DNA of 64,000 nucleotides from Promethearchaeota archaeon (GCA_016926735.1 JAFGOA010000223.1:1-64000); one strand, 5' to 3'; positions 40,559 through 43,272 are shown, numbered from the stretch's first letter. Notes: generated from the letters alone by a model not told the origin. Translations and numbers: made by a program.

Positions 40559-40689
40559 TTATAGTCCTTTAGGGCCATTTTCATATATTTTATATGCTTC
40601 ATCAACAGATGTATTATCATGAACAATTGCTCTTACAGCTTTGATCATACCAATAGGACTATCACTTTGAAAAATATTTCTTTCCATAT
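40559..40689 (-). pseudogene. Displaced duplicate of the aldolase last exon ([42 protein letters not shown])
   Basis: 131 nt colinear with 42039..42169; 20 nt differences, 37/42 aa identical. Confidence 0.9.
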
Positions 40690-40705
40690 ATTCAATTACG
40701 ATATT

Positions 40706-41854
40706 TTATTTTAATTCTTCAAATTTCTTTCCTTTAAGTTGCTTATGCCAATAATGTGGTTTTGGTTTTTTAATATTCCATTTTAAACATATTTCATTAA
40801 CAATCCTTGGATATACATTATATATTTCACATATTTTTTTAATTGGCATTTTCCAAACTAATTTTATCAGTTCATCCTTTTGAATGGAGTCTTCAAAAAT
40901 ATTTTTAGATGCAACTCTAAAATATTTCCTCTTTCGCGATAAACTATCTGGAAAATTATCTAACATTTCATTAAATAGTTTTCCGCCCAAACTAAAATAA
41001 TAATTCCCTTTACCATCGGGATTGATTTTATGAGGAATATTAAATCTTTTTTTTATTTCTTCTAAAATTAATTTACTACCAATATGAAATTGATTAGTCC
41101 CTTCTTTTCCATCACCATCAAAAAAACCTAGTAAAAATGCCAGATCTAATTCTCTATTATCTAAATTAGGAAATCTTGTTCTTTTTTTACTACTTTTTAC
41201 ATAACCTAATGTGTATAGATCACTTTGAACATTAGAATTTTTAAAAGTAATCCTTACATATGTTCTTAGTTCATTTTTAGTCATTTTTGTTCGATATTTC
41301 TTGTATTTAGGATTTAAACCTATCGCTTTACAATACCTATCTATTAAAATTTCATCATTTTTGCTTAATTCAAGTTTTAATTCTCCTCTTTCTCCTAAAT
41401 AAACTTCAGCCCACAATATTCCAAGCCAATAAGCTTTATTTTTTGAATTAATTTTTTTAAAGTAATTTATATTTAAATCAAGATGATAGTTTAAAACTTT
41501 TAGACCTTTTTTTCTAGATATTGGTAATTCTTCATTTGATTCTTGGTATTTCTTAATAAATTTTAATGTATTCTTCCCACGTAAGCCAAAATAAGCTTTA
41601 ATATTATTACTCCATTCGTTTAATTCATCTAAAGCAATTTTAAATTGAGGATTCACTTTAATATTTCTTATAATTCTTTTTATACGTCTTTCATAATCAC
41701 ATAATATAAGACTTAATTTTTTATAAGATAAACTTCCATTATGAATTATTTTAACTTTAAAACCATTAATAAATAAGGTGGATGATACAATCTTAAAAAT
41801 CTCGTTTCTTAAATCTTTTATTAATTCTGATGCAGAATAAGTAAGTCTTCTCAT
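40706..41854 (-). CDS. Free-standing double-motif LAGLIDADG homing endonuclease
   Basis: KAYWLGILWAEV and LAFLLGFFDGDG motifs; basic protein with an HTH-like C-terminus; no intein splicing motifs. Confidence 0.85.
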   Translation of the reverse strand: MRRLTYSASELIKDLRNEIFKIVSSTLFINGFKVKIIHNGSLSYKKLSLILCDYERRIKRIIRNIKVNPQFKIALDELNEWSNNIKAYFGLRGKNTLKFIKKYQESNEELPISRKKGLKVLNYHLDLNINYFKKINSKNKAYWLGILWAEVYLGERGELKLELSKNDEILIDRYCKAIGLNPKYKKYRTKMTKNELRTYVRITFKNSNVQSDLYTLGYVKSSKKRTRFPNLDNRELDLAFLLGFFDGDGKEGTNQFHIGSKLILEEIKKRFNIPHKINPDGKGNYYFSLGGKLFNEMLDNFPDSLSRKRKYFRVASKNIFEDSIQKDELIKLVWKMPIKKICEIYNVYPRIVNEICLKWNIKKPKPHYWHKQLKGKKFEELK

Positions 41855-42038
41855 TCCTCAATTATTTTGTTGTGTTTATTTCTGGTCTTTTTTCTATTTT
41901 TATCTAATTGAATTACTTCTCTAGTTTAAAGAATCTTTATTGATTTATATGGTTTTTATTAATATATATTTTAATAGAGTCTGCAGATTTTTTTAAATAA
42001 AATATTTATATTATAACAAGAAAAAAAAAATAAAAAAA

Positions 42039-42883
42039 TTAAAGTCCTTTTGGACCGTTTTCATATATGCTATATGCTTCATCAATAGACTTATTCTCAT
42101 GAACTATAGCTCTTACTGCTTTAATCATGCCAATAGGGCTGTCACTTTGGAATATATTTCTTCCCATATTTGCGCCTATAATTATAAAAAATAGTTATAG
42201 TCTACGCCGACAGCTCCTTTATCAATAGCATTCCTTGCCATAATTAAAGCATCACGCTCCTCAATCTTCTTTCCACCAGCTATTACAACCGGTACTGGAG
42301 CGATAGAAGTGACTTCGTCGAAGTTCTCACAATAATATGTTTTTACAAAAGTGGCACCTATTTCTGCTGCCATTCTACTTGCCATACCCAAATATCTTGC
42401 ATCTCTAACCATTTCCCGTCCAACTGCTGTTACTGCTAAGACTGGAATACCATAATCTTGTCCCCAATTTACAATCTTAGTTAAATTCATTAAAGATTGT
42501 TTTTCAAATTCACCACCTACAAAGATGGAACAGGTAATTGCTGAAACATTTAATCTTATCGCATCTTCAATTGTAACATTTATTTCTTCATTTGAAAGTT
42601 CTTTTAACATACTTGCTCCGGCAGATACTCTTAGAACGATAGGTACATCAAAATCCGGTGAAACACAATTTCGAAGCATACCTCGTGTTAACATTAAAGC
42701 ATCAGCATATTCAAAAAGGGGTTCTAACTTCTTAAAAGATTTTAACATTCCTGGGATATTGCCAAAATATTCATGAGTATGTATTAATTATACATATTTT
42801 CCATGATCGACAGCAAGCATGACGCAATGCCCAGATTTAGGTTTAATTATTCGGGATAATCTATTTTGCATTCCCCAATCCAT
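42039..42883 (-). CDS. lsrF: LsrF-like / DhnA-type class I aldolase, join(42883..42800,42769..42202,42169..42039), 260 aa after splicing
   Basis: [21 protein letters not shown] (spliced), [42 protein letters not shown] (spliced); exon lengths 84+568+131=783 nt. Confidence 0.9.
42170..42201 (-). other. 32-nt BHB mRNA intron 2 of the aldolase
   Basis: Central GCGT/GCGC, bulges AGA and AAA, inner stem CTATAACTAT/ATAATTATAG; cleavage after the second bulge nt gives GTA GAT ATG GGA (VDMG). Confidence 0.88.
42770..42799 (-). other. 30-nt BHB mRNA intron 1 of the aldolase
   Basis: Central CATG/CATG, bulges GAA and AAT, inner stem TATGTAT/ATACATA, outer TTGCTG..GAT/ATT.TGGCAA; in-frame TAA inside; splicing gives CAT GGA TAT TTT (HGYF). 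Confidence 0.9.
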
Positions 42884-43008
42884 AGTTTTATCACTTATTT
42901 CTTATAATAATTTTATTTTGATATCGTAATAAGTAATGAAATTATTATAAATTTTAAGTTTAATAGCTAAAATAAGATATTTTAAAAATTTGTATTAAAT
43001 ATTGTTTT

Positions 43009-43272
43009 TTATTTCAATTCTGTTGTTTTGGTTGCCAAAATAAGATCTATTTTTTCATATCCTCTAATTATACCCTTTTGATCGATAAATACAACGAATT
43101 GATGATCAGAACAGACAATCCCTGCAGGAACATGTATTTTAACACAGCCAGATTCTTTTTTTGAAAAAATTTCTGTTGGAATTTTAACTATTTTATCAAT
43201 TCCGCAAGTTGGACAAGATATATTGAACTCTCTCATGATTGATTCTAATTTCTTATAATTAATATTTAACAT
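43009..43272 (-). CDS. Small Zn-ribbon-like protein
   Basis: CPTC ... CSDH motifs, FIDQKGIIRGYE. Confidence 0.7.
   Translation of the reverse strand: MLNINYKKLESIMREFNISCPTCGIDKIVKIPTEIFSKKESGCVKIHVPAGIVCSDHQFVVFIDQKGIIRGYEKIDLILATKTTELK

Follow-up and report, generated by a model that had tools for sequence, protein, structure and literature searches.

How could a lokiarchaeon make a complete enzyme from a gene whose coding sequence is broken twice, once by a stop codon in frame? The question is raised by a locus in a MAG of Promethearchaeota (Loki-type Asgard; 3.88 Mb, 238 contigs, 99.3% complete). Sources of MAGs from this lineage or its congeners include sediments of Guaymas type and of the White Oak River and the South China Sea. 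Within the 64,000-nucleotide stretch of DNA that was analysed, here called the window, a class I aldolase/thiolase gene of the LsrF (LsrF/DhnA-type) family lies in three pieces separated by two interruptions (Table 1). When the first interruption, referred to as intron 1, is read through, the frame meets a stop after 31 codons.

The identity of the host gene is well defined by profile matches. NF006081, the NCBIfam equivalog for LsrF (3-hydroxy-5-phosphonooxypentane-2,4-dione thiolase), is matched colinearly by the three exons at positions 32-59, 62-250 (266.8 bits) and 252-288, with a rough summed score of ~353 bits against a cut-off of 297. Exon 2 also matches PF01791 (DeoC/LacD aldolase), and the profile position skipped after YF is a true one-residue deletion relative to E. 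coli LsrF in the alignment. A plain ORF listing gives only a 188-aa frame from an internal ATG, seven codons into exon 2, and a separate 42-aa frame. It misses exon 1, as the original prediction of a hidden 84-nt first exon had said; the translation of exon 1 and the N-terminus of P0006, an uninterrupted orthologue, are 100% identical, and P0006 itself matches E. coli LsrF at E = 2e-89. An 87-aa ORF lying upstream was considered as one cut down by rearrangement, a reading that was ruled out because congeners have the same short form.

Conceptual removal of both inserts yields a protein of 260 aa containing all the stretches that carry catalytic residues, DHG, FVKTYY and GVD-MGRN, which correspond to Asp57, Lys203 and Asp251 of E. 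coli LsrF. The roles of these residues were described for the E. coli enzyme, in which Asp57 is the proposed general acid/base (PMC2728841). The Asp of DHG aligns with Asp57, bearing out the claim that this is an active-site motif. A tblastn search with P0006 identified the interrupted gene as the only LsrF-type copy in the genome. Its exons show dN/dS values of 0.03-0.09 against relatives and, by this measure, the interrupted gene is functional and under strong purifying selection.

Table 1. Positions of the interrupted gene, its predicted intron elements and related inserts (window positions unless a contig or locus is named; a slash marks the point of insertion).
Feature	Position	Strand	Description
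Whole gene	42883-42039	(-)	Three pieces, two interruptions
Exon 1	42800..42883	(-)	84 nt, 28 codons; ATG at 42883; ends LAVDHG
Intron 1	42770..42799	(-)	30 nt, in frame; TAA is the 4th codon; KYV*LIHTHE
Exon 2	42202..42769	(-)	189 codons and first base of an Asp codon; starts YFGNIPG
Intron 2	42170..42201	(-)	Bulge-helix-bulge (BHB) intron of 32 nt that shifts the frame; lies within the Asp codon of GVD/MGRN
Exon 3	42039..42169	(-)	Last 2 bases of the Asp codon, 42 codons, stop
Whole hBHBh' motif of intron 1	42761..42811	(-)	From alignment pair counts, pattern scan and folds
Central helix	42805-42802 with 42775-42772		CAUG pairs with CAUG
Bulges	42801-42799 and 42771-42769		GAA and AAU
Inner hairpin	42798-42776		9 positions: A-U next to bulge, AxC mismatch, 7 contiguous bp
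Inner hairpin loop	42789-42785		5 nt
Outer exon-exon helix	42811-42806 with 42768-42761		U-A, A-U, G.U and 3 weaker pairs beyond a UU bulge
LAGLIDADG-like ORF	40706..41854	(-)	382 aa; directly downstream of the gene, beyond intron 2; two motifs in translation
Displaced second exon 3 copy	40562..40687	(-)	74% identical to orthologue residues 219-260 (tblastn of P0006)
Third aldolase site, G039	L056:4447-5253		30 nt
Third aldolase site, G025	L045		30 nt, without stop
Third aldolase site, G006	L055:989-1708		36 nt
aEF-2 insert	G000:C188:20431-20461	(+)	P-loop HIDHG-K-TT; profile 2-31 then 33-718
NadE insert	C143:3050-3079	(-)	KYGD/GG; profile 4-155 then 156-261
iorB insert	C4:54826-54855	(+)	GSE/MHG; colinear with NCBIfam profile
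ThiF/E1-like candidate insert	C108:9843-9872	(-)	GxGxxG; short upstream exon, no profile match

On the minus strand, the surroundings of intron 1 read ...GAU CAU GGA, then the 30 nt, then UAU UUU GGC..., which places the insert between the DHG and YFG codons; its boundaries can be slid by 1 nt with the same product. The in-frame insert, the CATG/CATG central helix and the two 3-nt bulges were all found at the coordinates given in the original prediction. The 7-bp inner stem that it described is present as seven contiguous base pairs, followed by a mismatch and a closing A-U pair, and the outer helix between the exons comprises three base pairs together with the weaker ones beyond the UU bulge. 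By the established rule, the splicing endonuclease EndA cleaves each bulge behind its second nucleotide. Cuts at these canonical positions would give GGA/UAU, that is Gly28-Tyr29, and the predicted junction joins the end of exon 1, ...GAUCAUGGA, to the start of exon 2, UAUUUUGGC... Cleavage by EndA inside each bulge has been described (bioRxiv 10.64898/2026.10.13.758758).

A purpose-written BHB pattern scanner returned exactly 42799-42770, and the BHB pattern with a 30-nt intron has a frequency of 6.4e-5 per position in this genome. The earlier description of the motif as a textbook BHB holds for this pattern and fails for the energetics. Nearest-neighbour modelling disfavours the exact 3/4/3 register, which does not coincide with the minimum-energy fold: p(A29-U51) was 0.03 and p(U21-A59) ~0 in the window copy, and the BHB conformer lay 6-13 kcal/mol above the minimum in 9/9 copies. 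The reason is that G26 and A56 prefer to lengthen the central helix; for this helix and for the inner stem as such, the model gives p > 0.9. Compared with shuffled sequence, the fold energy indicated no significant stability (z = -1.55), and looser BHB-like hairpins are common in this AT-rich genome, at about 1 per 520 nt. The significance of the motif therefore comes from the coincidence of the cut site with the reading frame and from comparative data. No Rfam match was obtained in 42000-43100 at E <= 1, and no tRNA gene was found within the window. With its 30 nt and no Rfam match, the insert holds no self-splicing group I or group II ribozyme core, which would extend over hundreds of nucleotides.

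Copies of the intron were sought as any 30-nt insertion at the exact site, with the sequence of the insert left unconstrained. Most orthologues in the 151 genomes of the order are 780 nt long and unbroken; the uninterrupted ones read DHGYFGN contiguously, and the predicted junction matches ~100 of them. Among 185,579 species genomes, five besides this one have an insertion at the site, and the metagenome collection contributed six contigs with a 30-nt insertion there. All named records with intron 1 are Promethearchaeota, and the reference genomes among them span three genera; within the order, 6 of ~110 orthologues carry the intron. Rather than a private mutation, intron 1 is a homologous element common to a few Promethearchaeota. 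The nine distinct copies are homologous and all 30 nt long. Each has an in-frame TAA or TGA, and no orthologue with a translated 10-aa insertion, the observation named beforehand as contrary to a BHB intron, was found.

Alignment of the nine distinct copies shows that 93.6% of the cells in the BHB structure are paired, against 21-51% in slid controls with the partner shifted by 1-3 columns; the copies are mutually related, so that shuffle statistics overstate their independence. The central helix is 100% paired. In the inner stem (h'), 95% of cells are paired and both-sided (compensatory) changes affect four of the nine pairs, and the outer helix (h) comprises three invariant base pairs and three distal pairs that are weakly kept, with C18-G64 paired in 4/9 copies. 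G.U or U.G combinations account for 28 of the paired cells. These make the fold specific to the sense strand and thus indicate an RNA structure rather than a DNA palindrome. On the exon side, Gly28 is encoded by GGA and Gly31 by GGC in 8/8 intron-bearing alleles of the coding set (the ninth distinct copy, from G006, was left out of this set and reads the same GGA/GGC), and the intron-bearing 18-mer occurs in none of the 36 intronless alleles. Such fixed exon codons would follow from constraint on the exonic half of the motif, or from their travelling with the intron.

We regard it as highly probable that the EndA pathway excises the 30 nt from the mRNA as a tRNA-type BHB intron. The alternative that survives best, and which we still consider very unlikely, takes the insert for an inactivating insertion, such as a small palindromic element, in a pseudogene from which nothing is spliced. 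It could appeal to the failure to find RtcB in the assembly, to the frequency of BHB-like hairpins in an AT-rich genome and to the unremarkable fold energy, but it conflicts with the constraint on the exons (dN/dS as above, and an exon 1 protein identical to that of an intact orthologue), with the gene being the sole LsrF copy and with the exactness of removal at the predicted bulge positions. Moreover, conservation of the insert extends to three reference-genome genera and to metagenome contigs and includes compensatory changes as well as sense-strand G.U pairs, and the same kind of insert occurs in essential genes such as aEF-2.

Translational hopping over the 30 nt is less probable again, and we would be surprised to find it. 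The known example, phage T4 gene 60, has GGA as its take-off codon, with a stop and a hairpin behind it. The aldolase gene resembles it in having GGA before the insert, a stop three codons later and a stable hairpin within the gap, but a matching landing codon is absent, the codon before UAU being GAA and not GGA. In the covarying helix, exon is paired with intron in just the way that EndA demands, and intron 2 and the inserts of aEF-2, NadE and iorB have BHB geometry without take-off and landing pairs. The least credible alternative, two assembling polypeptides made up of a 28-residue N-terminal peptide and a 225-residue remainder begun at an internal Met, would suit the internal ATG and the similarly shortened proteins that ORF callers predict in relatives (P0004, P0001), but it would cut the strand with the catalytic Asp off from the barrel, leaves the conserved RNA fold and the fixed exon codons unexplained, and still needs removal of intron 2 for the frame to be restored.

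Under removal by the EndA pathway, the gene would be transcribed with the 30-nt insert included, and codons 24-31 would fold together with the insert into the hBHBh' structure. A heteromeric alpha-beta EndA would then cut behind the second nucleotide of either 3-nt bulge, at GGA^A and GAA^U, and an RtcB-type ligase would join the exons to restore GGA-UAU, with the excised intron released, probably in circular form. Intron 2 would be removed likewise, giving the mRNA for the 260-aa enzyme. Two splicing-endonuclease paralogues (PF01974/PF02778) were identified in the genome. One of them, EndA alpha (G000:C33), possesses the catalytic Tyr, His and Lys; the second (G000:C100) is without them and beta-like, a predicted pair that fits the alpha-beta EndA architecture. 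EndA of this type has been reported in Asgard archaea and linked to a broad substrate range (PMC5829648). ARAGORN called 19 of the 52 tRNA genes intron-bearing. RtcB (PF01139) was not detected in the 99.3%-complete assembly, either by a Pfam six-frame search or by tblastn with the RtcB of a relative. One copy each is present in 3/3 congeners, and RtcB was found in 19 of 21 genomes searched, a count that includes this genome; its presence in congeners and relatives makes an assembly gap the likely reason for its absence here.

In the literature surveyed, BHB introns of archaeal mRNAs are on record in two places only, cbf5 of Crenarchaeota and the 5' UTR of HVO_1309 (PMC2738675, PMC7714728), and work that links BHB or splicing endonuclease with Asgard and protein-coding genes concerned tRNA introns alone; no paper describing such mRNA introns from Asgard archaea was found. 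The cbf5 pre-mRNA intron is found in Desulfurococcales and Sulfolobales (Watanabe 2002; Yoshinari 2006; Yokobori 2009, PMC2738675). Like the aldolase intron, it is a short BHB in coding sequence, removed in that case by the tRNA splicing endonuclease, its hosts likewise have a heteromeric EndA, and its presence among relatives is patchy, with gain and loss. By its predicted structure, the aldolase intron belongs to one kind with that of cbf5; the phylum and the gene are new. It differs in occurring in Asgard rather than Crenarchaeota, in the gene of a metabolic aldolase/thiolase, with two introns per gene here, a third site in relatives, other genes interrupted and signs of recombination-type spread. 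Splicing of cbf5 was shown experimentally; that of the aldolase intron is predicted.

The second case, HVO_1309 of Haloferax volcanii, has a 46-nt BHB intron in its 5' UTR (PMC7714728). There too, as is predicted here, the splicing endonuclease of archaea acts on an mRNA instead of a tRNA or rRNA, but the intron lies in an untranslated leader and leaves the codons intact, whereas the reading frame of the aldolase depends on removal. Asgard archaea are known for heavily interrupted tRNA genes with introns at non-canonical positions (PMC5829648; bioRxiv 10.64898/2026.10.13.758758). The aldolase intron shares with archaeal tRNA introns the two 3-nt bulges around a 4-bp helix that is half exon-built, the alpha-beta EndA and a similar size. 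Unlike them, it resides in an mRNA, so that codons have to supply the exonic half of the motif; of these, GGA for Gly28 and GGC for Gly31 are fixed in intron-bearing alleles.

In eukaryotes, the HAC1/XBP1 mRNAs are cleaved at stem-loops by Ire1 and joined by tRNA ligase or RtcB, in a regulatory, stress-induced reaction (reviewed in PMC3400036). The predicted splicing of the aldolase mRNA is similar in that proteins, and no spliceosome, would take a short intron out of a coding mRNA, with joining by a tRNA-type ligase; it differs in its nuclease, EndA and not Ire1, and regulation is a feature of HAC1/XBP1.

Intron 1 is one of several such elements in the aldolase gene. Intron 2 splits the codon corresponding to Asp251 of E. 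coli LsrF, at a point where intronless orthologues read GVDMGRN. Its ten homologous copies in relatives, in which a 30-nt variant is represented in G041 and G027, show compensatory changes in the central helix (for example GCGU/GCGC, GUGU/GCAU and GUGU/ACAC), as read by eye. A third intron site was observed in relatives only, at AGG/KK, after Gly226-Gly227 of the LsrF phosphate-binding loop, and G006 has three introns in its aldolase gene. All three sites fall in stretches that are identical between the E. coli and Asgard proteins.

The history of intron 1 was approached through a gene tree of the spliced coding sequences, which calls for four or more events of intron gain or loss. The intron-bearing metagenome allele L068 and its intronless near-twin L004 differ at 41 of 759 sites, with the differences concentrated from about -150 to +100 nt around the site; this single clear pair suggests a conversion-tract signature and DNA-level mobility. 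Because intron 1 is patchy on the gene tree and exon divergence peaks locally around its site, it was probably gained or lost by DNA recombination, possibly in the form of homing assisted by a free-standing LAGLIDADG endonuclease. An endonuclease-like ORF is found next to exon 1 in one of the nine intron 1 loci: on metagenome contig WOR8_10014670 (L072:1430-2593, minus strand), a 387-aa LAGLIDADG-like ORF directly precedes exon 1, its end lying ~90 nt upstream. This ORF and the 382-aa ORF of the window are 25% identical, and for the L072 ORF a word-indexed protein search for its relatives returned only itself. Pfam LAGLIDADG_3 matches of these ORFs are sub-threshold (E = 0.011 for the ORF in the window). 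The PDB sequence search with the window ORF gave nothing meaningful, so that the LAGLIDADG label rests on the motifs and the sub-threshold Pfam matches.

A history of the opposite kind, with an ancestral intron inherited vertically and precisely lost many times, and no homing endonuclease, keeps considerable plausibility, and we lean only slightly against it. All copies are clearly homologous, at five of the six genome loci that contain intron 1 the surrounding ~4 kb is free of endonuclease genes, and no displaced copy of exon 1 was found in the genome, in the loci of six relatives or in L072. Ancestry and loss sit less well, however, with a distribution limited to 6 of ~110 orthologues of the order, with an intron-bearing allele nested among near-identical intronless ones and differing from them mainly around the site, with the endonuclease-like ORF that abuts exon 1 in L072, and with the finding that intron 2, in this very gene, is part of an endonuclease cassette that includes a displaced exon. 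For intron 1, endonuclease-assisted spread is thus plausible but thinly supported.

The cassette beside intron 2 occupies 40562-41854 of the window on the minus strand, where the endonuclease-like ORF is followed by the displaced exon 3 (MERNIFQSD...). This arrangement looks like the insertion of a cassette that brought intron 2 together with a replacement exon. Two other segments were noted elsewhere. At G000:C95:24332-27499 (-), a homologue of the ORF (36% identical) follows an uninterrupted SNF2-type helicase gene and precedes a displaced duplicate of the helicase 3' end, from RAYRIGQ; the cassette architecture is the same, with no intron. At L004:2315-3595 (G049), ~1.28 kb follows the aldolase stop that is absent from the near-identical metagenome contig L068.

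Spread of this kind would recall collaborative homing, reportedly described by Bonocora and Shub and by Zeng et al. in 2009, in which phage group I introns that encode no endonuclease are said to be mobilized with free-standing endonucleases. The features in common would be an endonuclease-less intron at a highly conserved site, a free-standing endonuclease gene by the interrupted gene and co-conversion of the flanks; for intron 1, the likeness rests on the L072 contig and one conversion-tract-like pattern. Unlike the phage introns, which are self-splicing ribozymes, the aldolase intron is predicted to rely on the EndA of its host.

Other genes of the genome are interrupted in a comparable way. 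Among the scanner picks, aEF-2, NadE and iorB carry 30-31-nt BHB inserts and are exactly profile-colinear, which indicates that the aldolase intron belongs to a population. A genome scan for BHB motifs that fuse open frames returned 166 cases with true 3/3 bulges against 132-163 with decoy sizes; in view of this lack of enrichment, the scan is neither evidence for introns nor a count of them and served only for picking candidates. A broader proposal is that a genome-wide population of ~30-nt BHB mini-introns exists in Lokiarchaeia, spread at the DNA level with free-standing LAGLIDADG endonucleases that target conserved active-site DNA, the intron conferring immunity by interrupting that target and the host tRNA-splicing enzymes repairing the message. 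We put this forward tentatively, with distinctly more doubt than belief.

With removal of intron 1 by EndA, a lokiarchaeon would depend on BHB splicing for a metabolic enzyme and, by the sister cases, for aEF-2 too. Gene callers systematically shorten the interrupted genes, giving database proteins of 225-237 aa against a true length of 260 aa. The introns lie in active-site codons and differ between near-identical alleles. Their presence raises the questions of how ribosomes are kept off unspliced mRNA without a nucleus and how introns that depend on proteins come to invade coding genes in the lineage closest to eukaryotes. If the genome-wide population is real, the archaea most closely related to eukaryotes would splice coding sequences routinely, even those of essential genes such as aEF-2.

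Further candidates were encountered along with these genes. The scanner picks C212 and C50:45072-45102 look like false positives, and the ThiF/E1-like insert is kept as a candidate (Table 1). In G006, a Thg1-like gene (L055:1824-2582, minus strand), flanked by the aldolase and a small zinc-ribbon ORF, is broken into frames of 146 aa and 96 aa that lie 27 nt apart, and this break may be a further mini-intron.
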